DNA of 64,000 nt from a virus: IMG/VR virus record IMGVR_UViG_2864926767_000001; one strand, given 5' to 3'. How positions within the stretch are numbered: position 1 is the first letter of the stretch; each line of letters starts with the position of its first letter. A program made the position numbers and the translations under genes. Below the pieces are notes generated by a model that was not told the DNA's origin, searched no databases, and worked only from the letters and a program-made list of their open reading frames with translations. This document shows positions 210 through 46,352 of this stretch, in pieces.

Positions 210-285
210 TGGAGCGGATAAGGAGGTTCGAACTCCTGGCCTGCGCCTTGGCAAGACGCCGCTCTACCAGCTGAGCTATATCCGC
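210..285 (-). tRNA. tRNA-Gly(GCC)
   Basis: Cloverleaf with encoded CCA; anticodon loop TTGCCAA. Confidence 0.95.
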
Positions 286-286
286 G

Positions 287-394
287 TGGTGGACGTTGCA
301 GGAGTCCAACCTGCTACCCCTCCTTGCGCAATGGCTGAGCCTAGCGTGGTAGCGAACTACCAGGCCCGCAAGGAAGAGCTGCCTCAGCACGCCC
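287..394 (-). ncRNA. 108-nt tRNA-like RNA with G3-U70 acceptor stem, T-arm and CCA but no anticodon arm
   Basis: GGGCGT/ACGTCC-A-CCA acceptor; T-arm GCAGG-TTGGACT-CCTGC; 12-bp helix CTCTTCCTTGCG/CGCAAGGAGGGG; internal UUCG hairpin. Confidence 0.7.
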
Positions 395-415
395 CTTGAA
401 ACTACACAGACAACT

Positions 416-491
416 TGGTGGAGAATGCGGGGTTCGAACCCGCGACCTCCTGCATGCCATGCAGGCGCTCTCCCAACTGAGCTAAGACCCC
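416..491 (-). tRNA. tRNA-Ala(GGC)
   Basis: Cloverleaf with CCA; loop ATGGCAT; G3-U70; U5.U68 and C6.U67 mismatches. Confidence 0.92.
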
Positions 492-499
492 GATGAAAC

Positions 500-575
500 T
501 GGTGGAGCAGGTGGGGCTCGAACCCACGACCTCAGGCATGCCATGCCTGCGCTCTTCTAACTGAGCTACAACCCC
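500..575 (-). tRNA. tRNA-Ala(GGC)
   Basis: Cloverleaf with CCA; loop ATGGCAT; G3-U70. Confidence 0.92.
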
Positions 576-590
576 GGTACTTCATTGAAC

Positions 591-666
591 TGGTGGAGAA
601 TGCGGGGCTCGAACCCGCGACCTCCTGCTTGCAAGGCAGGCGCTCTTCCAACTGAGCTAAGACCCC
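591..666 (-). tRNA. tRNA-Ala(TGC)
   Basis: Cloverleaf with CCA; loop CTTGCAA; G3-U70; same mismatched acceptor stem as 416..491. Confidence 0.93.
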
Positions 667-671
667 AAAAC

Positions 672-746
672 TGGTGCATGCGGAAAGATTCGAACTTTCG
701 GCCCCTCGATTATCGGTCGAGTGCTCTACCGCTGAGCTACGCGTGC
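672..746 (-). tRNA. tRNA-Ile(GAT)
   Basis: Cloverleaf with CCA; loop CCGATAA (C at position 33). Confidence 0.88.
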
Positions 747-790
747 ACAACCCTTTTCTACTCCGGCGGAAATCCAACGCCGGGTGAACC

Positions 791-866
791 TGGTGCCGAA
801 TGAGGGACTCGAACCCATCGCCCTCGCCCTTACCAAGGGCGCGCTCTACCACTGAGCTAAAACGGC
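791..866 (-). tRNA. tRNA-Thr(GGT)
   Basis: Cloverleaf with CCA; loop TTGGTAA. Confidence 0.92.
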
Positions 867-876
867 AGTGAAACAT

Positions 877-1134
877 TGGTGGAGATGACGGGAGTTGAAC
901 CCGCGCAACTGCTACTCAAGACCTTTCAATCCCGAGCTCCAAGGAGCTTTAGACTACGCTTCCCGTGCTTGTTTGGCCCCGCCAGGGTGGAGTGATTACC
1001 AGAACCCTTGAGGGGGCTCCCCTGGCCGCTATCGGTGCTTCTGAGACGTTCCGCTCCTCAAGATGAACAGTCGGGTTTTACCCCTCCGGCTTCTAGTTTA
1101 TGCCGTGCTCGCGACCAACTGAGCATCCATCCCC
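877..1134 (-). ncRNA. 258-nt tmRNA-like / tRNA-like RNA (G3-U70 acceptor, tmRNA-type T-arm, internal pseudoknot)
   Basis: GGGGATG/CATCTCC-A-CCA acceptor; 3' end GCGGGTTCAACTCCCGTCATCTCCACCA resembles ssrA 3' ends; interleaved CTTGAGG/CCTCAAG and GCCAGGG/CCCTGGC pairings. Confidence 0.7.
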
Positions 1135-1139
1135 GTATG

Positions 1140-1215
1140 TGGTGGTAACGAAGGGCTTCGAACCCCTGACCTACCCCGTATGAAGGGGCCGCTCTACCAG
1201 CTGAGCTACGTTACC
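1140..1215 (-). tRNA. tRNA-Met(CAT), elongator-like (Ile2 not excluded)
   Basis: Cloverleaf with CCA; loop TTCATAC; paired G1-C72. Confidence 0.88.
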
Positions 1216-1216
1216 T

Positions 1217-1286
1217 TGGCAGACCGCCCCGGATTCGAACCGAGCCTCTTCAGTTTTGGAGACCTAGAGGGTGCCAGACACGACCT
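1217..1286 (-). tRNA. tRNA-Trp(CCA), 70 nt, lacking a normal D-arm
   Basis: Acceptor AGGTCGT/GCGGTCT-G-CCA; loop CTCCAAA; T-loop TTCGAAT; only 9 nt in place of the D-arm. Confidence 0.72.
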
Positions 1287-1314
1287 GTTAAAACCTTCAA
1301 TTTCCGCTTAAAAG

Positions 1315-1391
1315 TGGGTTGAGAGATGGGGATCGAACCCACGACAACCGGAGCCACAATCCGGTGCTCTGCCAACTGAGCTACTCTCAAC
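1315..1391 (-). tRNA. tRNA-His(GTG)
   Basis: Cloverleaf with G-1, C73 and CCA; loop TTGTGGC. Confidence 0.95.
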
Positions 1392-1400
1392 ATCGAAACT

Positions 1401-1476
1401 TGGTAGATCCGGGCGGGCTCGAACCGCCGACCCTCTGCTTGTAAGGCAGATGCTCTTCCCACTGAGCTACAGATCT
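1401..1476 (-). tRNA. tRNA-Val(TAC)
   Basis: Cloverleaf with CCA; loop CTTACAA. Confidence 0.95.
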
Positions 1477-1490
1477 ACAAACCTTGAAAA

Positions 1491-1565
1491 TGGCGGCCCT
1501 TGGTGGGATCGAACCACCTCGTGGCGGGGTCAAATCCCGCTGCCTTCCCACTTGGCTAAAGGGCT
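1491..1565 (-). tRNA. tRNA-Gln(TTG)
   Basis: Cloverleaf with CCA; loop TTTTGAC-type with TTG anticodon; A1.C72 mismatch. Confidence 0.92.
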
Positions 1566-1608
1566 ACAACTCTTCTGCCTGCCTCTCTTCCGCAGGACTT
1601 CTTCTGTT

Positions 1609-1684
1609 TGGCGGCCCCGGTAGGACTCGAACCTACGCATGCCTGGATCAGAACCAGGTGCCTTACCAGCTTGGCTACAGGGCT
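1609..1684 (-). tRNA. tRNA-Gln(CTG)
   Basis: Cloverleaf with CCA; loop TTCTGAT. Confidence 0.93.
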
Positions 1685-1690
1685 ACTGTG

Positions 1691-1775
1691 TGGTGATGGA
1701 GGTAGGATTCGAACCTACGAACCTTCCGGAGCGGGGTTACAGTCCGCCGGCTTTGACCACTTGCACTACTCCATC
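1691..1775 (-). tRNA. tRNA-Tyr(GTA)
   Basis: Cloverleaf with long variable arm and CCA; loop CTGTAAC. Confidence 0.93.
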
Positions 1776-1861
1776 ATGACTTTCTCGCCAGGGCCGATTC
1801 AGGCCACCTCCTGGCTCACTGATTTTTTTCTGCCGGCGGAGGCTTCGCCTCTCGCCAAATT

Positions 1862-1937
1862 TGGCTCCGATTCCTGGACTCGAACCAGGGACTCCCTAGT
1901 TAACAGCTAGGTACTCTACCAACTGAGCTAAACCGGA
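1862..1937 (-). tRNA. tRNA-Asn(GTT)
   Basis: Cloverleaf with CCA; loop CTGTTAA. Confidence 0.95.
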
Positions 1938-1981
1938 ATTGACCTTCTCAAATCCCTGCAAAATCCTGCAGGCCTTGCATT

Positions 1982-2057
1982 TGGTGGGCCGCATTGGACT
2001 TGAACCAATGACCACCCGCTTAAGAGGCGGGTACTCTACCAACTGAGTTAGCAGCCC
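1982..2057 (-). tRNA. tRNA-Lys(CTT)
   Basis: Cloverleaf with CCA; loop CTCTTAA. Confidence 0.95.
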
Positions 2058-2160
2058 AAAATCATCCCCAGTGTATCGCCGTGGGGTGCGCCGCATACGA
2101 AGCGGGTCGGGTCTCAGCTCCCTGCAGGTTGCCCGTGGGCAATCCTGGTCTGCTGGTCTC
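2058..2160 (-). repeat. Structured ~100-nt element, copy 1 (immediately upstream of tRNA-Lys(CTT))
   Basis: Aligns with 2567..2664, with compensatory base changes in two stems. Confidence 0.75.
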
Positions 2161-2162
2161 TT

Positions 2163-2240
2163 TGGCGGGCCGGGGGAGGACTCGAACCCCCTACCTCAAG
2201 GATTTGGAATCCCGTATGCAGCCAGTTACACCTCCGACCC
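2163..2240 (-). tRNA. tRNA-Trp(CCA)
   Basis: Cloverleaf with G73 and CCA; loop TTCCAAA; one extra C between T-stem and acceptor stem. Confidence 0.85.
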
Positions 2241-2335
2241 GTGTTACTCAGCGAGCGGCCAGGAATTTTTACCCTACCAGTCTGCTGTCTTGCCCATCGA
2301 GTTGGCGTATTCCACCATCTCAATTACCCCTAAAT

Positions 2336-2411
2336 TGGCTCCGGGAACAGGGCTCGAACCTGTGACCCGCGCATTAACAGTGCGCTGCTCTTCCGACTGA
2401 GCTATCCCGGA
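2336..2411 (-). tRNA. tRNA-Asn(GTT)
   Basis: Cloverleaf with CCA; loop CTGTTAA. Confidence 0.95.
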
Positions 2412-2490
2412 AAGGTACATCTACATCTCTGCGTAAGCGGCCCCTTCACGCGCCCTTCCGCTGGCTCCCCGTAACGGGAGCCCCCTGATT

Positions 2491-2566
2491 TGGTGGGCCG
2501 CATTGGATTCGAACCAATGACCAGATGGTTAAAAGCCACCTGCTCTGCCAGCTGAGCTAGCGACCC
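2491..2566 (-). tRNA. tRNA-Lys(TTT)
   Basis: Cloverleaf with CCA; loop CTTTTAA. Confidence 0.95.
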
Positions 2567-2664
2567 AAAATCGTCCCCAGTGTGTCGCCGTGGGGTGCGC
2601 AGCATACGGAGCTGGCCGGGTCTCGGCTCTTTGCAGGTTGGCCAGAAGGCGCCTGGGCTGCCGG
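2567..2664 (-). repeat. Structured ~100-nt element, copy 2 (immediately upstream of tRNA-Lys(TTT))
   Basis: Aligns with 2058..2160. Confidence 0.75.
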
Positions 2665-2716
2665 TTATCTATCTTGCCCTCCGCCCGCTTGGGCCACTGG
2701 GAGGACATTGCATTTT

Positions 2717-2792
2717 TGGTGGAAAAGGACAGGTTTGAACTGCCGACCTCACCCTTATCAGGGGTGCGCTCTACCAACTGAGCTACTCTTCC
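2717..2792 (-). tRNA. tRNA-Ile(GAT)
   Basis: Cloverleaf with CCA; loop CTGATAA. Confidence 0.95.
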
Positions 2793-2797
2793 AAAGT

Positions 2798-2872
2798 TGG
2801 AGCTGAAGACAAGATTCGAACTTGCATAAAGGTGGGTTGCAATCACCTGCCTATCCGTTCAGCCACTTCAGC
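2798..2872 (-). tRNA. tRNA-Cys(GCA)
   Basis: Cloverleaf with U73 and CCA; loop TTGCAAC. Confidence 0.92.
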
Positions 2873-2969
2873 ATCAAACTTTTCTCAAATTTTTGGCGCA
2901 CTTATCCCGCAACTTGAATAACAGTTTTAAAACAACTTTTAAGACAACATCTTAAACTTCAAAAACAAC

Positions 2970-3047
2970 TGGTGCATCAGGGCAGATTTGAACTGCCGAC
3001 CCTCGGGGTTTCACGCCGATGCTCTAACCAAACTGAGCTACCGATGC
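2970..3047 (-). tRNA. tRNA-Phe(GAA)
   Basis: Cloverleaf with CCA; loop GTGAAAC; C31.C39 mismatch. Confidence 0.88.
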
Positions 3048-3085
3048 ATTTAAAACATGAACTTAGAACTGCTAAGTTTCACTAT

Positions 3086-3162
3086 TGGTTGCGGGAGACG
3101 GATTCGAACCGCCGACCGCCGGATTATGAGTCCGACCATCTACCAACTGATTGTATCCCGCC
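3086..3162 (-). tRNA. tRNA-Met(CAT), initiator-like
   Basis: Cloverleaf with CCA; loop CTCATAA; unpaired G1.A72; only two G-C pairs near the anticodon loop. Confidence 0.85.
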
Positions 3163-3169
3163 TAAAACC

Positions 3170-3256
3170 TGGTGGAGCCGGTAGGACTTGAACCTACAGT
3201 GGGCGTCGCCCGGCGGATTTACAGTCCGCTGACTTTACCAATTCGTCTACGTCTCC
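3170..3256 (-). tRNA. tRNA-Tyr(GTA), first gene of the operon
   Basis: Cloverleaf with long variable arm and CCA; loop CTGTAAA. Confidence 0.93.
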
Positions 3257-3671: not shown

Positions 3672-4610
3672 ATGGTCAGCAGAATTGGACAGGCTCTGAA
3701 GAACTGCCTGACGAACGAAGTAGCTCACGCGAAGGCGATCACTGAGCATGACGCGTCGACCGGTAACAACTTCGCCTACAGGCTCCTCCCCGCCTCCGTT
3801 GTTGGCGCAAGCCTGATGAAGCTGTACCTCTCTGCTTCGCAACCTGGCAACAGCGTTACCGAAAACGTCCTGGCCGCTGGCCAGATGGTCGTCGACGCTA
3901 CCGCCGGCTTCGCAAACGACCACTCGACCGGCCTGATGGTTGGCGGTGCAGTCGTTGCTACTGCCTTCGCCGCCACTTTCGTGAAAGGCCTGGCGCTGGA
4001 AAACGAAGAGCTCCGCAAGCGCCTGAGAGATGCCTTCCAGAAGGAGGGCTATGGCGAAGAGGCCGTTCGATCCGCAGAGCGCGCTCACGCAGCTTTGCTG
4101 AAAACTCACAGCGACCTGAACTCCCTGGTGCACGCTGAGACACAATCGCTGAAGGCGCTGCTGCTCAAGCCGAGCAAGGAGCTGGTGAAAATCGCCAAGA
4201 AGCACAAGGTCGACATCGTTGACCCGGAAGCTCAGCGTGACCTGCAGATGGCTTACATCCACGGCCTACGTCAGGCCCTGGCAGAAGGTGTCGCGAAAGG
4301 TCGTGACATGTCCGGGAGCGTGAAGATCCACTCCAGGGACGTGAAGGCGGCCATCCTCGCCGGCATGACCACCTACTACCAGGCAATCGTGGGCAGCGAG
4401 CCGTCTCTCGGAGCTAAGGTGAAGTACACCATCACCGGGCGTGAAGGAGACCTCATCCAGGACTCCGTTGCCGGCCAGAAGGCCCAGAAAGGCTATGACG
4501 CCATCCGCGCCATGGATGCCGATGCACCGAAGGGTGAGTACTCCAAGAAGGAGATCCTCGAAGCCCTTCAGAAGCGTGAAAGGGATTCCTCGGTCGATCT
4601 CGGTCGCTAA
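3672..4610 (+). CDS. Hypothetical protein (2 possible TM segments; C-terminal PKGEYS motif)
   Basis: AGGAG SD before ATG 3672; coding-like codon bias. Confidence 0.75.
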   Translation: MVSRIGQALKNCLTNEVAHAKAITEHDASTGNNFAYRLLPASVVGASLMKLYLSASQPGNSVTENVLAAGQMVVDATAGFANDHSTGLMVGGAVVATAFAATFVKGLALENEELRKRLRDAFQKEGYGEEAVRSAERAHAALLKTHSDLNSLVHAETQSLKALLLKPSKELVKIAKKHKVDIVDPEAQRDLQMAYIHGLRQALAEGVAKGRDMSGSVKIHSRDVKAAILAGMTTYYQAIVGSEPSLGAKVKYTITGREGDLIQDSVAGQKAQKGYDAIRAMDADAPKGEYSKKEILEALQKRERDSSVDLGR

Positions 4611-7400: not shown

Positions 7401-7531
7401 GTAGCGGGACAGCTGTAGTCCCGCTACGCGGCGAAGTCACCCCGCCCTTCGGGCCAAGCCCGGCAGTCGCTCTAGCTCCTCTTGCCGGGAAAGGCGTACC
7501 AAGCGGCAATAGTCCCGCTTCGCGGCGAAGT
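7401..7531. repeat. Hairpin-rich intergenic region with a 22-nt direct repeat
   Basis: TAGTCCCGCT(A/T)CGCGGCGAAGT at 7416-7437 and 7510-7531; 10-bp hairpin GTAGCGGGAC/GTCCCGCTAC at 7401-7427. Confidence 0.7.
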
Positions 7532-7608
7532 TTGGGCTGAGCAAAGCCCAGCCTCCTTCCTTTTGGCGAGTAGTAGCCCTGCCCTTGGCAGCGGAAGGGC
7601 CTCGCTGC

Positions 7609-8020: not shown

Positions 8021-8821
8021 ATGATGAAAACACTCGTAGCTGCCCTCGCCCTGCTGGTAGCCGGCCATGCTGGTGCTGCCAACCTGTACAAGGATGGCAC
8101 TGAAGCCCACAAGATGGCTGCTTTTGTGGAGAACATCGTCCCGGCCGACATGAGCATTGTCTTCGTCCAGGAAGGAAAGCCTGGTGTTTACGATTCTCAG
8201 CTGGACAAAGCCAAGTTGGCATCGGCGGCTGTGAGCGAAAAGTCTATCTCGAAGATCAGCTCAGCCAGCTTCAGCAAGGGGCTGTCGGTTGATCGTGCTG
8301 CGGCGATGACTGTTGTTGATGGAACCATTCCTGAGAACCGTCCTGCACCCCGAGTGTGCGGCATCTATTTCCGCGATGCTCGCGAACAGAAAAGCTACGT
8401 CGGCCTCACACACGAATCGATTCACTGCGCCCTTCGCCCTCTGTACGGCGACAAGGCATTCGTGCGTGCAATGCAGCCGGTTGCCGACCTCAAGGTCGAC
8501 CTGTCGGTGTACAACAAGATCGCCTACTTCGAAGAGTTGGTGGTTGCTGGCTCGATCATCTCCATGAACGACCGGGGCGACATTCCTGCAATGTACCGCA
8601 GGAACATTGGCAATGCCCTCAAGCGCGGCCCCAACCACGCGGGGACGCCTTACTACAGCTTCCTTCGCCTCATGGAGCTTTGCCCTGTCGGCGCCAAGTG
8701 CCCGAGCACTCCGAAAGAGGCCGCTGAGTTCTTGGCGAAAGACAAGATGATGCTCGAGGCTATGCAGAAGGACTTCAGCTTCTTCGCGGTCGCAGACGGC
8801 CAAATCAGAAAAGCCCCCTGA
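8021..8821 (+). CDS. Secreted protein with HExxH (THESIH), possible zinc metallopeptidase
   Basis: Signal peptide MMKTLVAALALLVAGHAGA; HESIH motif. Confidence 0.6.
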   Translation: MMKTLVAALALLVAGHAGAANLYKDGTEAHKMAAFVENIVPADMSIVFVQEGKPGVYDSQLDKAKLASAAVSEKSISKISSASFSKGLSVDRAAAMTVVDGTIPENRPAPRVCGIYFRDAREQKSYVGLTHESIHCALRPLYGDKAFVRAMQPVADLKVDLSVYNKIAYFEELVVAGSIISMNDRGDIPAMYRRNIGNALKRGPNHAGTPYYSFLRLMELCPVGAKCPSTPKEAAEFLAKDKMMLEAMQKDFSFFAVADGQIRKAP

Positions 8822-8845: not shown

Positions 8846-10798
8846 TTACAGGGACAGGCCGCTGTCTTTACCCTTCGTCTGCGAGAAGAGCAGGTCAAGA
8901 TCTTCCCTTGAGTAGGTTCCCTTCGGCACCGCTTGCGCCATCTTCTCAACAGCTGCTGGGCCGTGAGCGACGCTAGCCACCGATGCAGCATGATCCGCCA
9001 ACGGCCTTACCGGGGCATGGTAGGACGGATCGATGACCTGATGCGGAACCTGCAGAACGAAGGGATGCCCATCTGGGGTAACCAACGGGAGGATGTTCGG
9101 GTTAGACCCGATCAGCTCTTTGTTGGCCTCGTAGAGTGCGTTCACCGCATTGGTCACGCTGGCATTCGTTACCGGAACACCGGCCTCTGACAGCGACTTC
9201 TCAGCGATCTTCCAGAGGCTATCCCCCTTCACCACAGTGTGCGTTGGCACCACTTCGGCGCTGGGCGCGACTACTGCCTCTGCTGGAGCAGTAGATTCAG
9301 GAGCAACTGGCACATCAGCATTTGGAGTAACTACCGGCGACTCTGCATGCACCTCGGCAGGTGCTTCAGGAACCACCGGAGAGTCGTCCATCAGGGCATC
9401 TTCGGAGGAGTAGCCGTTAGACGGATCAACACCGGGAATACCTGCGAACATATTCCCAGATGCATCCAGGTGCACCGAGCCACCTGCTCCAGGGAAGAAT
9501 TCGGTGCCGGCAAGGCGCTTACCGAGCTCGGCTGCCTGGTTGTAGGCATACTCGGCACCGTCACGAACTACGCCCAGGCTGTCGCCCGCGACATGGCCAG
9601 CTGCTGCCAAGTTCGGGTAGTGCGTTCCGATAGTGTCGCCGGCTACCGCAAGCTGCTCTGAGAGCTCGCCAGTGAATTTGGAGCCGGCTTCTGCGACAGC
9701 AGCGTAACCACTCGAAGCCAGATCCTTGCTGGCATCGACCGCACCATGGAATGCGCTGGCAATAGCGTTGTTGATATCTGCCAACGCCTCTACGGGATGC
9801 GTAGTCGCTTTGATGATGAAGTCGGCGGTATCCATGTAGGCGTGTCCGACAACAGCGCCTGCCGCAGCACCGTATTCTGATGCGGTCTCGAAAGCTACTT
9901 CGGCGCCATGCTGGATCGACTCTGAACCAGAGGCCATGCCGGCCTGAATGGAGCTGTTGATGCCTTCCATCGTGGCGTCGTAGTTTGAGGCCAGGTTTTC
10001 TACAGTGCTGCCCACTGAGCCGAAGTCGATGTGCGAAGCACCCAGGCACAGGCCGGCCAGCGCGATGGTCGGCACGCCATACTTCTTGAAGGTCTCGGAG
10101 CCGAAGATGGCTGCAGCCGTTTCCTTCATCTCCGCGAACTTGTCAGCGATCTTGCTGGTGGGTACGCCCTGCTTCTCCAGGGAATCTGTAATCTTGTCGG
10201 CAAGGGTCTTGGCCAGACTCCGGACGCTTTCGTTCTCGCCCAGTTTGCGGGCAAGGTAGACACCGGCCTTGAAGCCGATCTTGGTCACGATGGTGCCGCT
10301 GGCACAGGCGATCCCCAGTGCAGCGACATTGAGGGCCTTGTGGCCATGCTCGCTGTTGAGGAAGTGCACGATGTTGTCGCGCACTGCCGCGACACGGGCA
10401 CCGAGCAGCGGACGAGAAGCGTCAGGGAAGGCTTCTTCGAAAGCACCAGTGGTCTTCAGGAAGTCCGTGAACTCAGCCGGAAGCTTTCCGATTTCTTCCT
10501 GCGTTAGACCAGCACGGCCTTCCAGGTAGGAGTTGATCGGGAAATCGTTGGCCTGCTTGGCGACTGCCGTCCAGACATCTTCGAACATCGCCTGGCTCTC
10601 GGCGATGGACTCATCCTGGAACAGCGTCTCGAAGACGCTGCGAGGGTCTTTGCGGTTTTTCTCCTGGCGCATAACGGCCTGGAGAAGCTCCTCGAACCTG
10701 CCCTGGCGCTCCAGCTCCCTGATGACCATCAGGTACTGCATGTAGCGCTTGGAGTCGTGAAGGCTCACGTCAATGTCGGGATTCAGGTCAGTAGCCAT
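8846..10798 (-). CDS. Large protein with Ala-rich middle, Pro/Glu linker and C-terminal LysM domain
   Basis: HTVVKGDSLWKIA..ALYEANK..IGSNPNIL; AGGAC SD; ends KDSGLSL. Confidence 0.8.
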   Translation of the reverse strand: MATDLNPDIDVSLHDSKRYMQYLMVIRELERQGRFEELLQAVMRQEKNRKDPRSVFETLFQDESIAESQAMFEDVWTAVAKQANDFPINSYLEGRAGLTQEEIGKLPAEFTDFLKTTGAFEEAFPDASRPLLGARVAAVRDNIVHFLNSEHGHKALNVAALGIACASGTIVTKIGFKAGVYLARKLGENESVRSLAKTLADKITDSLEKQGVPTSKIADKFAEMKETAAAIFGSETFKKYGVPTIALAGLCLGASHIDFGSVGSTVENLASNYDATMEGINSSIQAGMASGSESIQHGAEVAFETASEYGAAAGAVVGHAYMDTADFIIKATTHPVEALADINNAIASAFHGAVDASKDLASSGYAAVAEAGSKFTGELSEQLAVAGDTIGTHYPNLAAAGHVAGDSLGVVRDGAEYAYNQAAELGKRLAGTEFFPGAGGSVHLDASGNMFAGIPGVDPSNGYSSEDALMDDSPVVPEAPAEVHAESPVVTPNADVPVAPESTAPAEAVVAPSAEVVPTHTVVKGDSLWKIAEKSLSEAGVPVTNASVTNAVNALYEANKELIGSNPNILPLVTPDGHPFVLQVPHQVIDPSYHAPVRPLADHAASVASVAHGPAAVEKMAQAVPKGTYSREDLDLLFSQTKGKDSGLSL

Positions 10799-17822: not shown

Positions 17823-19290
17823 TCATGCGCGGGTCAAGGTTTCAGGCGCACAGCGCCTTCACTCTTGACGTTCTGCCAATAGCTGTACGAATATACAGCC
17901 ATGCTGAACGGGATCCGCTGTCGCGCTCATCCAACCACCGAGCAGGCCAAGAAACTGGCCCAGTGGATCGGTTGTGCGCGACTGATCTACAACGCAAAGG
18001 TATCGGAAATGCAGTATTTCCGCACCTTCTCGCGTAAGGCGTTGGGCGCCGGCCAAGCCGTGATCGATCAAGCGTATTCGCAGTTCAAGGACGCTGAACT
18101 CACCCCGTTCCTGAGCGAGGTTCCGTCGCAAATTCTGCGTAATTCAGCCGTGCAGTTCATGAACGGCTGGCAGCGATTCCTCAAGGGCCTGGCCTCTCCG
18201 CCAACCCACAAACGCAAGGGTGAGCGAGACAGCGTTCATCTCACCAACGAACTGTTCCGGTTCGTTGACGAAGGCCTGATAGAGATCGGCACGAAACGCT
18301 TCCCGGTTGGCACCCTGCGGTTCACGCAACACAGGGAAATCACCGAACCGAAGTCCATCATCGTCAGCCGCAAAGCCGGCAGATGGTACGTCAGCTTCAA
18401 TTTCGAAGACGCAACACTGGCTCCGCCGCGCCCTCGAGACGAGATTCTGGCCGATCTGTCCCATCTCGATGAGGCTCAGCTAACGGCAATGACCTGGGCC
18501 GGCGACCGTGGAGTGCGGGACATGCTGCACGGCAGCGATGGCCAGGTGTTCCACCTGACCGTCAGCGCTGTGGCCAAGAATCGACGCAGGGAACTCACCA
18601 AGAGGCGCCTTCAGCGGCGCCTCGCCCGGCAGCAGAAGGGTTCCAGGCGCCGCGACAAGACCAAGCGTCGCATCGCGCATATCAGCAGTGGCCAGGCTGA
18701 GGTACGGCGTGATTTCGCGCACCAGACCTCACGGAAGCTGGTCGACAGCCCGTACCAGGTATTCGTGTTCGAAGACCTGAAGATCACCAACATGACCCGC
18801 CGGCCGAAGCCAAAACAGGACGAAGCGACCGGCGAATACCTGCCCAATGGCGCTGCAGCGAAAGCCGGCCTGAACCGAAGCATTCTGCAGAGCTGCTGGG
18901 GCAACATCGTACTTTACACTCACTACAAGGCCGAACGAGCGAACAAGGTCACCATCAAGGTGCACCCGCATTTCAGCTCGCAGACGTGCTCCCAATGCGG
19001 ACACACGTCATCCGAAAACCGCTCTGGAAAGCAGTTTTCGTGTACCTCTTGTGGCTTCAAGGCAGACGCAGATGCCAACGCCAGTGCCGTGCTTCGCGCC
19101 AGAGGCGCGAAGCACATCATCGACGGAGAATGGCGTGAGCAGAAGGCCAAGAAGACAGTGAGTTTCAGGAAAAGGGGCTCGGAACGCGTCCCTCAAAACC
19201 ACGTGGAGAGACCTGTCGCACTGTGCGCTCAGATCTCAGTGAAGCGCGGATGCCCCGCTTGAAATCTTCGATTCAAGCGCGGGTAGTTCA
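17823..19290 (+). mobile_element. IS200/IS605-family element carrying only tnpB (IS1341-like)
   Basis: TTGAT at 17818-17822 followed by left-end hairpin GTCAAG..AGGCGC-ACA-GCGCCT..CTTGAC; right-end hairpin CCGCTTGAA/TTCAAGCG-CGG then TAGTTCA ending at 19290; no tnpA. Confidence 0.8.
17901..19262 (+). CDS. tnpB: TnpB/InsQ-family RNA-guided endonuclease
   Basis: N-terminal PTTEQ..GCARLIYN; RuvC D (AGDRG), E (FEDLK), D (DADANA); Zn finger SQTCSQCG..CTSCG. Confidence 0.93.
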   Translation: MLNGIRCRAHPTTEQAKKLAQWIGCARLIYNAKVSEMQYFRTFSRKALGAGQAVIDQAYSQFKDAELTPFLSEVPSQILRNSAVQFMNGWQRFLKGLASPPTHKRKGERDSVHLTNELFRFVDEGLIEIGTKRFPVGTLRFTQHREITEPKSIIVSRKAGRWYVSFNFEDATLAPPRPRDEILADLSHLDEAQLTAMTWAGDRGVRDMLHGSDGQVFHLTVSAVAKNRRRELTKRRLQRRLARQQKGSRRRDKTKRRIAHISSGQAEVRRDFAHQTSRKLVDSPYQVFVFEDLKITNMTRRPKPKQDEATGEYLPNGAAAKAGLNRSILQSCWGNIVLYTHYKAERANKVTIKVHPHFSSQTCSQCGHTSSENRSGKQFSCTSCGFKADADANASAVLRARGAKHIIDGEWREQKAKKTVSFRKRGSERVPQNHVERPVALCAQISVKRGCPA

Positions 19291-19299
19291 CATTTGAGG

Positions 19300-20427
19300 T
19301 CAGATATCCAAAACCGTCGCCATCATCTTCGTCTGCTGCTTCTCACTCATCTTCGGTGAGAAGTCCATGATGTTCTTCTCGATCAGCTCATCCATAACAT
19401 CCCGGCTCAGATGCTTGATGAACTGGTCGAAGCGGCCGAACTGCTGGAGGAGCTGAATATGCTCCCGCTTGAATCGCCTGTTGCCAGCGAATTGGGCCGC
19501 ATCTTTGGGGGTAGTCAGGTCGCTCTCCATCGCCCACCTGATGTGCTCTTCAAGCTTGCTATCCGTCGATGAAGCTAGGATAGCCCGGTTGGTAGGACAG
19601 GCATAAAGACCTGCTGCAACCATCACATCTCTGCAGCCTGGAAAGCGATCAAAGGTGAAACCGTTGAGAACCGAGACCATGCATGGTTTCGAATACTTAA
19701 AACAATGCTTACTCTGCACTAGCTTCGTGTAGTAGGCCTGCAGTTCCTTGCTCGGCTTGGCAGCCACTGGATGAAGCCTGGCGAACTCCTCAAGCCTCAT
19801 GCCAAGCACTCTCTCAAATGCGGCCTCCCACCGATAGATGGCCTGAGTGTCGCGATTTTCATATGCGACCTTATCCTGGATCTCCCCCGCACGAGCGATG
19901 GCTACCATCAGGGTCATGCAGACCTTGTCGTAATTCTCGGGCTTCTTGGCTTCTTTTGCCCAGGAACCCTTGAACAGCGCAGGGGCGGACTCGATCACGT
20001 AAGGCTCAACCATCATCCAGTTGCAGAGCTCTTCGAAGCTCTTGCCCGGCTGAATCGCAGCTCGCACAGCCTCATGCTGAAAACGCACGTTGTCCCAGTT
20101 GAGCGTGTTGAACTGCACCACACCAGGAGCAGTGACCTGCTTTATCCATTCGAGCATACAGGCCGTGTAGACCGGGATCATCTCCGGCTGCTCCTGGGTC
20201 TTTCGGGAAAGACGAAACAGAAAGTGCTCGACCTCCTTGTATCCCTTCTTGCTGCTCAAGGTGTACATCGCAACCTGCGGGAACTGCTTGAGGATCAGCT
20301 CCGGATCACGCGTGAACCCCATTTCGTTCAGGAGTGTGTCGCGATACTTTTTTTGTCCGTATTTGCGATCAATCGCTTCCTGGACTGCTTTGGCGTACAG
20401 CGGGTCGTCAGTGATTTTCCAAGGCAT
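19300..20427 (-). CDS. Hypothetical protein with shared C-terminal motif
   Basis: AGGAG SD before ATG 20427; ends EKQQTKMMATVLDI. Confidence 0.75.
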   Translation of the reverse strand: MPWKITDDPLYAKAVQEAIDRKYGQKKYRDTLLNEMGFTRDPELILKQFPQVAMYTLSSKKGYKEVEHFLFRLSRKTQEQPEMIPVYTACMLEWIKQVTAPGVVQFNTLNWDNVRFQHEAVRAAIQPGKSFEELCNWMMVEPYVIESAPALFKGSWAKEAKKPENYDKVCMTLMVAIARAGEIQDKVAYENRDTQAIYRWEAAFERVLGMRLEEFARLHPVAAKPSKELQAYYTKLVQSKHCFKYSKPCMVSVLNGFTFDRFPGCRDVMVAAGLYACPTNRAILASSTDSKLEEHIRWAMESDLTTPKDAAQFAGNRRFKREHIQLLQQFGRFDQFIKHLSRDVMDELIEKNIMDFSPKMSEKQQTKMMATVLDI

Positions 20428-20722
20428 GCTTCTGTGTCTCCTTCTTACTCTCACGGTACGGCTGGATAAGCCATCTCCACAAGCCGAGGAGGTTGGTCAG
20501 GAAGAAGGTCACCTCAAGAATCATCATGCCGAACGCATCCATTGAGCCGGCAAACAGGAAGAGTCCCCATGCCGATACGATGAAGAATGGCCAACCCCAC
20601 TTCGACCACCTGGTATTGCTGGCCACCATCAGTGCGCCAACCACACCGAAGACCGTACCGACCCACTGAGTGACCGTCTGATACAGGGTGTGAACCACTA
20701 CTGCGCATTCAGCTTCGACCAT
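20408..20722 (-). CDS. Small 3-TM membrane protein (PnuC/PQ-loop-like half transporter); start uncertain
   Basis: QWVGTVFGVVGALM..WGWPFFIVS..FFLTNLLGLWRW. Confidence 0.55.
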   Translation of the reverse strand: MVEAECAVVVHTLYQTVTQWVGTVFGVVGALMVASNTRWSKWGWPFFIVSAWGLFLFAGSMDAFGMMILEVTFFLTNLLGLWRWLIQPYRESKKETQKHALENH

Positions 20723-20835
20723 CGAGGGCCTCTCAAGAGAAGATGGGTCAGCACACCGGGGAAACAACCCCGCCAAGAAAAGTAATCGGCCTGACAAGGT
20801 CAGGCCGACTTGGTAGTGCTCAATTGTCGCCTAAA

Positions 20836-21471
20836 TCAGCCTGGCGTCCTAGATGGCTCAGGCGCCGGAGCTTGATCATTTGACATGCGGCGCTCGCTTG
20901 CGCGAATCGCGCCCTGAACAGTGCTCTTCACACTGTCCATCCTTGCTTTGAGATCAGCGTGATCAGCGGCATGCCCGTTTTTTTCGAAAGCACCACGGAT
21001 CTTGCCGCTGAGCCTCCCCAGCAGCTCCATGAGAAGCTTGAGAACAACCAAAATACCGTTGTTTTCCGGCGAATGCTGCAGGCGCTCGCCCTGTGGGCCA
21101 GTAAGGGTCTTTTCGATGCGCTCGAACTCATCGCGAAGCTCAAGTGCTTGCTCTGGCGTCACGTCATCACTACGCATACGCTCCGCGATTTCCTCAAGGC
21201 GCATATTGCAGCGACGAAGCTGATCGAGGCTGTAGCATTTAGCCAGGTTCTCCTCGATCTTCTCCTTGACCGGGTCATAAGGTGTACCGCTGTTGAGCGC
21301 GTCTACGGTCTCCTCAACTGTACGCTGGTCAGGCGCCGGTTCTGGCGGCGGAGTGGGCTCAGGGGTCGGATCGGGCTCAGGCTGGCGATACGGATCCGGT
21401 TCTGGCGTCGGTGCCGGCTCCGGAGGAATCTCGGCCTCGGGCCCACGGTTTTCGTCGTAGTTCATGCTCAA
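20836..21471 (-). CDS. Hypothetical protein with Pro/Glu-rich N-terminus and coiled coil
   Basis: ORF track; AAGGAC SD. Confidence 0.7.
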   Translation of the reverse strand: MSMNYDENRGPEAEIPPEPAPTPEPDPYRQPEPDPTPEPTPPPEPAPDQRTVEETVDALNSGTPYDPVKEKIEENLAKCYSLDQLRRCNMRLEEIAERMRSDDVTPEQALELRDEFERIEKTLTGPQGERLQHSPENNGILVVLKLLMELLGRLSGKIRGAFEKNGHAADHADLKARMDSVKSTVQGAIRASERRMSNDQAPAPEPSRTPG

Positions 21472-44274: not shown

Positions 44275-45159
44275 TCAGATGTCCAGGATCGCAGACATGG
44301 CCTGGGTCTGGCCGGCGTCACCCATCTTCTCAACCAGGTCAGCTCGGCCGAGCTTGAAGGCCATGAGCCTGACCTCGTCAGTGTCGAGCTGCGAATCGAC
44401 CTCCCAATCGTTCATCTTCAGGATGTTGTCCACCACCACATGGGCCGCACTCTTGAAGTGGTCTTTAAGAGCATCACCGCCATCGAAGCCCTTTGTCTTC
44501 CAGGCCATCCGCCGCATGAGTTGCACCCAGCTCGGGTTAGGAGACTTCTCTCCCACCTCAATCCCGATCTCTCTGCGGATTTTCAGAAGGCACGCTTCGT
44601 CGTCGCCGGCAGCGATGGCTCCCGACAGGAACTGCTTGTTGCGCAGGTAGGTGGACACCATCTGATCCCGATAGCGGCCGGCGAGTAGTCCGCTGTCTTC
44701 GAGCTTCTGGGGGTCGAACTCAGAGAGTGTTCCGACAACCTGTACCAGGCCGTAATGCATCTCCAGCAGATCCATGATGTCTCTGGCCAAGCGAGCGCGG
44801 CCCTGGCGGATCGACTCGGACAAGGTCGACTGCCAATCGGACGCTTTCACCTGCCCGGTCAGGTCAGCAACAGCCCATAGCTTCAGCTGCACCCTGGCGA
44901 AGGGCTCAGGCATCGAAAGAATCGTTCGGGTGAATATCCCCTTGCCCAGGCCCGAAGACTTCACCACGGCGTCCGCAAGGGCCCTGTAGCGTTCCTCATC
45001 CGCAACCCGGCAGACGTTCTTCCCATCACGAAGCAGACAAGTGCTTACCGCGATACCGAACCCCTTGCTTCGCGATACCTGCTCGGCAAAGACGTTGAAA
45101 GCCTCGGTAGGTGAGCCCTCAGGGCTCAGAAGCTCGATGAGTAGGGTGGCATCAACCAT
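44275..45159 (-). CDS. Hypothetical helical protein with shared C-terminal motif
   Basis: GAGGTG SD; ends DAGQTQAMSAILDI. Confidence 0.8.
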   Translation of the reverse strand: MVDATLLIELLSPEGSPTEAFNVFAEQVSRSKGFGIAVSTCLLRDGKNVCRVADEERYRALADAVVKSSGLGKGIFTRTILSMPEPFARVQLKLWAVADLTGQVKASDWQSTLSESIRQGRARLARDIMDLLEMHYGLVQVVGTLSEFDPQKLEDSGLLAGRYRDQMVSTYLRNKQFLSGAIAAGDDEACLLKIRREIGIEVGEKSPNPSWVQLMRRMAWKTKGFDGGDALKDHFKSAAHVVVDNILKMNDWEVDSQLDTDEVRLMAFKLGRADLVEKMGDAGQTQAMSAILDI

Positions 45160-45167
45160 CTGTCACC

Positions 45168-46352
45168 TCAGAAATCCAGGTTCACAAGCATTGCTTTGGT
45201 CTGCGCATCATCAGAGGCATGACTGAAGAGCTCAGAGCAGTCAGTCATGATGAATGGCATCACCACCGTCAGGGCCTCCGGGGTCTTGTTGCGGAACAGC
45301 TTGTTTGCCTCCACGCCTTCGAGGATCTCGTCGTGGCACGCGATCAGCTCTTCTTTCAGCCCTTCCTCAGCGGTCGGCCACTTCAGCCCCGTCGCCTTGG
45401 TTAGGTCTGCCAGGAAGCCCAGGTACGACTTAACCTGCGAGTTGAACTCCTTCCCAGTCGCTCCCTCTCGCTTCGCGAGCTGCAGCATGTGGGCGTTACC
45501 CCTAAGCGCCACCACCAGGTCTGTGATCCTGGTCATCAGCGTCTTTTTCAGATCCGTGAGCTTGCTGCAGGAAAGCCCATCATTGGCCAGAGCCATAAGG
45601 CGTGCCGTGGCCTCGGGTGAACCACTCCGTGCGGCCTGGGCGCGGAGCTCGGGCAGGTTCGCCCAGAACTGCATCACCAAATCCTGGAACACCGGAGTCG
45701 TGAAAGCTTTACGATTGGCCGCAATCAGCTCGGCCACGCCCAAGTTGAACTCGATGTCATCGTAGGTTTTGGCATCGCGAAGCCCACCCTTGGCACCCAA
45801 CATCTCGTACTTCTTGGTGGCGGGCGCCAGATCGTAGATAACACGGGCGTTTTCAAAGTCGCTGGCATCCAGCATGCCCTTAACCACAGTAGCCGCGAAG
45901 CCGGCGGCCGCAGGCGCTTTGAGGAATTCATCTTGATCAGCCACTTTTGCCAGGGCAATGGCCAGGCGCGGGGTGATAGGCCTGCACAGACTTTCCGGCC
46001 ACTTCTTCGGCCTTCCCGCCTCAGAACCAAGGTGCTGGCCAATACCGGATACCAGGCCAAACGCCAGGTCGTACTTCCTGTCGTAGTTTCGGGGCTTTGA
46101 CTCTACGAGAGCCTCCAGCAGCGCTTCAATTTCATCGATAGCGCCAACCTGGGCCAACAGAGTGCCAACACTCCTCTGGTTCAGGGTTCCTGCCCCGCTA
46201 TGAAGCGGCTTATCGCCCAGGCACGGGAATGCTTCACTCACTCGAGCTTCCAGATCAGCCGAAAGCTCTTCGCTGATGGCCAGAGGGTTGTCCCAGATGT
46301 AATCCCGGCAGAACTGCTCAAGGCGGGCCCTCTTTTTGTCATCAATTGTCAT
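45168..46352 (-). CDS. Hypothetical helical protein with shared C-terminal motif
   Basis: Ends DDAQTKAMLVNLDF. Confidence 0.8.
   Translation of the reverse strand: MTIDDKKRARLEQFCRDYIWDNPLAISEELSADLEARVSEAFPCLGDKPLHSGAGTLNQRSVGTLLAQVGAIDEIEALLEALVESKPRNYDRKYDLAFGLVSGIGQHLGSEAGRPKKWPESLCRPITPRLAIALAKVADQDEFLKAPAAAGFAATVVKGMLDASDFENARVIYDLAPATKKYEMLGAKGGLRDAKTYDDIEFNLGVAELIAANRKAFTTPVFQDLVMQFWANLPELRAQAARSGSPEATARLMALANDGLSCSKLTDLKKTLMTRITDLVVALRGNAHMLQLAKREGATGKEFNSQVKSYLGFLADLTKATGLKWPTAEEGLKEELIACHDEILEGVEANKLFRNKTPEALTVVMPFIMTDCSELFSHASDDAQTKAMLVNLDF

Follow-up and report, generated by a model that had tools for sequence, protein, structure and literature searches.

A conserved three-armed RNA motif in the tRNA operons of Pseudomonas megaplasmids

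The tRNA operon of a probable Pseudomonas megaplasmid carries two copies of a structured RNA element, hereafter referred to as motif A, which represents a genuine and apparently undescribed RNA family. Both copies are encoded, like the tRNAs, on the minus strand of the window (the whole 64,000-nt stretch of DNA that was analysed, IMG/VR record IMGVR_UViG_2864926767_000001), and each stops 8 nt short of a tRNA-Lys gene. At roughly even odds (a probability of about 0.5), I interpret motif A as a passenger small RNA that tRNA processing sets free, akin to RNAC and RNAD of phage T4.

The window is carried by a contig (C1) of 450 kb and 57.5% GC, in an assembly (G000) totalling 7.6 Mb. The remaining large contigs are mostly of ∼66% GC, and the low-GC contigs sum to 1.06 Mb. 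The closest relatives of the proteins encoded near the tRNA array are found on ∼1-Mb Pseudomonas plasmids, and the window is probably part of a ∼1-Mb megaplasmid with a Pseudomonas host. Contig C18 holds another megaplasmid tRNA array, with genes for Ser, Thr, Leu, Pro, Arg and Met, at positions 112299–115471; several of its spacers, of 200–550 nt, look structured, and motif A is absent from it. Elsewhere in the window, an IS605-family TnpB gene is located at 17901–19262 (+), and a homologue search with the open reading frame at 3672–4610 returned only the self-match.

The two copies of motif A are 82% identical across 101 nt (BLAST, E=1.5e-20), and no third copy was found by BLAST in the 7.6-Mb assembly. 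Both share a common three-arm fold, with the stems listed in Table 1. The first-pass annotation had reported two such copies in front of tRNA-Lys(CTT) and tRNA-Lys(TTT), and all the stems that it named, with their compensated changes, were recovered; its ranges however took in the 8-nt tail (Table 1). It had also described one inner hairpin as freely varying, and P2 indeed differs between the copies in both length and sequence, with pairing retained. Other features that it described as kept need qualification: the linker CGTAT is found in both window copies, but its loop base T is replaced by C in a close relative, and the conservation of P4 and of the tail is partly due to recent gene conversion. 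Folded individually, neither copy performs better than shuffled sequences (z of −0.8 for copy 1 and −0.1 for copy 2), and the evidence for the fold is therefore comparative rather than thermodynamic.

Table 1. Coordinates of motif A, motif B and associated tRNA features in the window.
Feature	Position	Strand	Remarks
tRNA operon	210..3256	(-)	21 ARAGORN calls plus tRNA-Trp; low-GC megaplasmid
tRNA-Lys(CTT)	1982..2057	(-)	ARAGORN
Copy 1 tail	2058..2065	(-)	U-rich, 8 nt; 5' leader of tRNA-Lys(CTT); putative RNase P cut at its 3' side
Motif A copy 1	2066..2158	(-)	P1, purine-rich 4x6 internal loop, variable P2; AGAC linker; P3 (2-nt bulge, 7-nt loop); P4 hairpin
Copy 1 P1	2152-2155/2115-2118	(-)	
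Copy 1 P2	2125-2147	(-)	
Copy 1 linker	2108-2114	(-)	
Copy 1 P3	2102-2105/2091-2094	(-)	loop 2095-2101
Copy 1 P4	2082-2086/2066-2070	(-)	
tRNA-Trp(CCA)	2163..2240	(-)	3' end 5 nt ahead of copy 1; overlooked by default ARAGORN
Motif B	2412..2490	(-)	unrelated conserved two-hairpin element, after Lys(TTT) and before Asn(GTT)
tRNA-Lys(TTT)	2491..2566	(-)	ARAGORN
Copy 2 tail	2567..2574	(-)	U-rich, 8 nt; 5' leader of tRNA-Lys(TTT)
Motif A copy 2	2575..2666	(-)	architecture as copy 1; compensated changes in P1 and P3
Copy 2 P1	2660-2663/2624-2627	(-)	
Copy 2 P2	2634-2655	(-)	
Copy 2 P3	2611-2614/2600-2603	(-)	
Copy 2 P4	2591-2595/2575-2579	(-)	

Homologues were identified by inspecting spacers in related arrays, by scanning for patterns and by looking up gene neighbourhoods. 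Eight further copies are present in related megaplasmids: one each in P. silesiensis pPL1, a P. serbica plasmid, pPLMAXa, the FeN3W plasmid and the metagenome contigs L039 and L063, and two in L093, a 97%-identical relative of the window. The three arms are common to all ten copies, which amount to ∼9 distinct, mutually related sequences and are always on the sense strand within a tRNA operon. A covariance model scores all ten at 77–107 bits, while the best unrelated match in any search reached 18 bits.

Motif A starts at its 5' end with RAC, followed by P1 (4 bp), a 4x6 purine-rich internal loop, and P2. The linker AGAC(C/A) then leads to P3, consisting of 2 bp, a 2-nt bulge, 4 bp and a 7–8-nt loop, and the 3' part is formed by P4, with an 8-nt loop core, and the U-rich tail. 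Many of the unpaired bases are invariant, including an AC immediately 5' of P1. The internal-loop bases flanking P2 are C-C, A-A, U-U or A-G but never Watson-Crick, which suggests that they form a selected non-canonical pair. By eye, the internal loop of the six non-window copies fits a kink-turn, in which a 3-nt bulge precedes tandem G-A and A-G pairs, apart from an additional base in the short strand; in window-type copies the fit is degenerate. A CG core is common to the P3 and P4 loops, which resemble tRNA T-loops in some copies. Among the internal unpaired segments, no pseudoknot or kissing interaction of at least 4 bp is kept in all copies, nor was a conserved helix linking the 5' and 3' ends found, and a consensus scan revealed no internal promoter.

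In all ten copies, the ten core pairs of P1 and P3 are Watson-Crick, and three of them show compensated swaps. All six variable core columns belong to just three of these pairs (a counting argument gives P=0.003), and a single one of 200,000 tree simulations of six substitutions left every pair Watson-Crick. Such covariation figures are to some extent circular, as the same sequences served to derive the structure. Over the alignment, 88–91% of cells are paired and 10 pairs have changed on both sides, compared to 25–46% paired in slid controls; even in P2, where length and sequence vary, pairing stays at 85–88%. G-U substitutions and pairing probabilities both favour the tRNA strand. Motif A is among the few window spacers that can be aligned to distant arrays, and compared to L093 its copies show 4 substitutions in 183 positions, against 57 in 833 for the other spacers (Fisher p=0.015). 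A further spacer, at 2244–2335 (-), is structured (z −2.8) and contains tRNA-like pieces; it evolves unusually fast relative to L093, and is missing from L045, a syntenic 903-kb P. aeruginosa plasmid.

The homologues, the covariation counts and the slow change relative to L093 thus support the claim of the first-pass annotation that the structure is under selection. The annotation had set this against simple duplication; the two window copies appear to be the product of one duplication with gene conversion, rather than of two independent recruitments. A patchy distribution, gene conversion between the two loci and unremarkable folding z-scores might be expected of a neutral relic, namely a decayed tRNA or spacer copied together with tRNA-Lys. 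However, the core changes are all compensated, although neighbouring proteins of these plasmids are only 27–60% identical, and there is neither an acceptor stem nor a CCA end, so that this explanation is largely refuted. A tRNA or tRNA-like gene was also rejected, since the two ends are not joined by a conserved in-register helix, P4 is not followed by CCA, and ARAGORN and Rfam are silent.

Motif A is accessory and narrowly distributed, being carried by 7 of 14 arrays. No match was found by BLAST in phage collections, and six DNA patterns retrieved no homologue from IMG/VR, where the matches of four patterns, rescored with the model, reached at best the chance level of 18 bits. It was likewise not found in nine other large plasmids, nor in 150 genomes sampled from the class, and is therefore so far a Pseudomonas megaplasmid family. 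Two candidates for remote homologues were rejected as weak matches, L036 (E=0.68) and L113 (E=0.19, with no tRNA nearby). The Rfam search proposed in the first-pass annotation assigned no family: in Rfam 15, neither window copy matches at the gathering threshold or at E<=10, and the FeN3W and PLMAX copies are also without a match. A full-text literature search did not retrieve strings of the motif A sequence; a prior listing is possible in the supplements of a catalogue of 10,006 viral RNAs (PMC10690425), which fell outside that search. The publication on the megaplasmids pMPPla107 and pBASL58 mentions tRNAs, but not non-coding RNAs (PMC6482414).

The position of motif A suggested to the first-pass annotation an element dedicated to tRNA-Lys. 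Nine of the ten copies precede a Lys gene, but these comprise four window-type copies and five with the syntenic Tyr-motif-Lys-Met order of pPL1-type arrays, and go back to roughly two inherited arrangements. In FeN3W, the copy begins 3 nt past a tRNA-Asn and has no adjoining Lys gene. Conversely, motif A accompanies 7 of the 39 Lys gene calls in the 14 arrays and is lacking from the other 32 (a few calls being atypical tRNAs), and in L045 both orthologous Lys genes have plain leaders, of 15 and 25 nt. The case for a dedication to tRNA-Lys is therefore weak, and the claim was not established.

Gene conversion may have contributed to this arrangement. The T-arm and 3' acceptor strand of the two window Lys genes are nearly identical (2 differences in 33 nt), a likeness not seen between the L045 orthologues, and upstream of the Lys genes the two loci show 2 differences in 34 nt, then 7 in the next 40. 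This suggests gene conversion between the Lys isoacceptor loci, with Lys homology as its anchor. Such conversion can account for both the paired positions and the retention of P4, and no Lys-specific function need be invoked. Some caution against dismissing a link to Lys nevertheless remains, because Lys genes are also preceded by the unrelated motif B in 13 cases, and followed by it in two.

In motif B, a first hairpin precedes a second one that is bulged and has a G-rich loop. Motif B is more widespread than motif A: the 14 arrays hold 15 copies, of which 13 lie immediately ahead of a Lys gene and 2 immediately past one. Its carriers include the window, L001, L002, L003, L027, L030, L039, L045, L047, L049, L051, L059 and L063, and it is located just downstream of motif A in FeN3W; the window copy has no Rfam match. 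In the FeN3W plasmid (L005), a tRNA-like gene with a long insertion (7457–7586) directly follows motifs A and B. A third element, motif C, is a short hairpin with the loop AAAAGAGTG that recurs in many array spacers, including those of L001, L003, L005, L047 and L049, and at ∼113.4–113.8 kb of contig C18, with a similar hairpin at 1566–1608 of the window. It is possibly a protein or processing signal.

Motif A could act in cis, as a leader tuning how the adjacent tRNA-Lys precursor is processed or folded, for example if the linker paired with the first bases of the tRNA until a factor binds. The nine Lys-preceding copies end 7–15 nt ahead of the Lys +1 position, motif B suggests that Lys leaders attract structure, and in the minimum-energy fold of the copy 2 precursor the linker pairs with the 5' end of the tRNA over 7 bp. 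However, this pairing is just 3–5 bp in the other copies, the copy 1 precursor folds motif A and the tRNA independently, and Lys tRNAs are not preferred in cofolding. Together with the FeN3W copy and the plain leaders of L045, this makes a cis-acting leader unlikely, if the one I would consider with some seriousness. A broader proposal, in which motif A is a new catalytic or ligand-sensing RNA class controlling plasmid tRNA-Lys maturation in cis and, with motif B, makes up a group of tRNA-Lys leaders that can replace one another and are linked to anticodon-nuclease defence, appears doubtful.

In the passenger reading, motif A would be a ∼90-nt non-coding RNA gene riding in the polycistronic tRNA transcript of ∼1-Mb Pseudomonas megaplasmids. 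RNase P cleavage at the tRNA +1 position and 3' maturation of the preceding tRNA form an established processing pathway. The cut at +1 of the next tRNA would leave P4 and the short U-rich tail as an exonuclease-protected 3' end, 3' maturation of the preceding tRNA would free the 5' end, and with both cleavages motif A would accumulate as a separate small RNA. Its position before Lys genes would mostly reflect inherited gene order, with duplication and conversion via Lys-gene homology. Passenger RNAs of the RNAC/RNAD kind are conserved, structured non-tRNA units that are sense-encoded within a tRNA operon, as motif A is, and that accumulate as discrete stable RNAs, as motif A would. The distances to the flanking tRNAs are variable, as expected of a free-standing unit: the gap from the upstream tRNA is 3–60 nt, and P3 is followed by the downstream tRNA after 31–40 nt (252 nt in FeN3W). 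Against the passenger reading stand the lack of a conserved end-joining helix, the position of 9 of the 10 copies right before Lys, and the fact that motif B also hugs Lys genes.

RNAC and RNAD originate from the T4 tRNA region, their roles are unknown (PMC3014915), and both have been validated by Northern blotting (PMC9697503). Like motif A, they are small non-tRNA RNAs in the tRNA region of a mobile element, but they are found in a phage rather than a plasmid, and their expression is demonstrated, that of motif A being a prediction. GOLLD (RF02032), manA and YrlA are likewise structured non-coding RNAs among the tRNA genes of phages or megaplasmids; GOLLD is much larger than motif A, which matches no Rfam family at E<=10. 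The operons of this plasmid family carry other cargo RNAs, namely a tmRNA-like gene, motif B and, in L054, GOLLD. The tmRNA-like gene is located at 877–1134 (-) of the window and is 67–74% conserved across seven related arrays, while L054, a related element, has two GOLLD RNAs (8313–8765 and 9187–9586), one with a tRNA-Lys inside.

The invariant unpaired bases, in the purine-rich internal loop (k-turn-like in six non-window copies), the AGAC linker and the two CG-containing T-loop-like loops, might together create a tertiary surface for a protein to bind, with a tRNA-handling enzyme as the likeliest candidate; this part of the model is more tentative. No protein partner was identified. For YrlA or Y RNA, a gene for Ro60 (TROVE) is expected in the genome, and TROVE gave no match in G000, while the control was positive in two known genomes. 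Near the array but outside the window, contig C1 encodes an RtcB RNA ligase and a lambda-phosphatase-like metallophosphoesterase (19925–21058 and 44784–45611). The latter adjoins the array only in loci bearing motif A, but was rejected as a partner, as the family is also present in pMPPla107 and pBASL58, both without motif A. In L093 and L045, an RNase T family gene adjoins the 3' end of the array.

The same invariant bases, the open multi-hairpin fold and the AC 5' of P1 could also be those of a new class of small self-cleaving ribozymes, cutting the tRNA polycistron in a theta-like fashion, and two copies begin 3–5 nt past a tRNA CCA end. Theta ribozymes, a precedent for such an activity, fold as a nested double pseudoknot and have been proposed to process tRNA 3' trailers (PMC10879173). 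Both are small structured RNAs adjoining tRNA genes of mobile elements, but theta ribozymes are hosted by Bacteroidota and Bacillota gut phages, and motif A by Pseudomonas megaplasmids. An HDV/theta nested double pseudoknot with the catalytic J4/2 C was found in 0 of 9 copies (with a relaxed descriptor and no positive control), and the hammerhead CUGANGA core is absent from the 9 copies; other Rfam ribozymes are also unmatched. The ribozyme suggested by the first-pass annotation thus has no counterpart among these known cores. With 3–60 nt to the upstream tRNA, a theta-type cleavage site abutting the tRNA 3' end is not matched, and the absence of a conserved pseudoknot and the variable spacing to both tRNA ends further make a self-cleaving motif A quite improbable.

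A short GCUGAGA-like run gives motif A a surface likeness to the TPP riboswitch and to T-box leaders. This identity was rejected, as the U of the run is paired in P1 and is a C in copy 2, and there is no P2 partner, T-box sequence, downstream open reading frame or Rfam match; the gene downstream is a tRNA.

A multi-hairpin sense-strand RNA within a 3-kb untranslated operon could also modify RNA polymerase, as an antitermination or anti-Rho element aiding read-through, for which put/nut-type RNAs provide a precedent. This is very unlikely, considering the mid-operon site, the lack of a minus-strand terminator-like site after motif A, and the half of the arrays that do without it.

The first-pass annotation also noted that tRNA-Lys is a target of anticodon nucleases, which is confirmed for PrrC, and phage tRNA-Lys rescues from this nuclease (PMC11555353). 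Motif A might accordingly be a decoy for nucleases of the PrrC or PARIS type, and the RtcB RNA ligase is encoded 28 kb away on the megaplasmid. However, no hairpin loop carrying the Lys anticodon loop was found in the copies examined, which leaves the decoy proposal with hardly any likelihood. The P3 loop agrees with the Thr(CGU) loop at 6 of 7 bases in most copies, but mimicry of that anticodon arm was rejected, as it is not kept in copy 2, L093 and FeN3W.

With motif A, the cargo of megaplasmid tRNA operons gains an uncatalogued RNA family whose core is compact and testable. Natural pairs with and without the motif are available, namely the window and the P. aeruginosa plasmid L045, as well as pPL1-type plasmids that carry or lack it. 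If motif A were to self-cleave, or to gate tRNA-Lys maturation, this would constitute a new mechanism. As pPL1, PLMAX, P. serbica and FeN3W are cultured carriers, the role of non-tRNA RNAs in tRNA clusters is directly testable.
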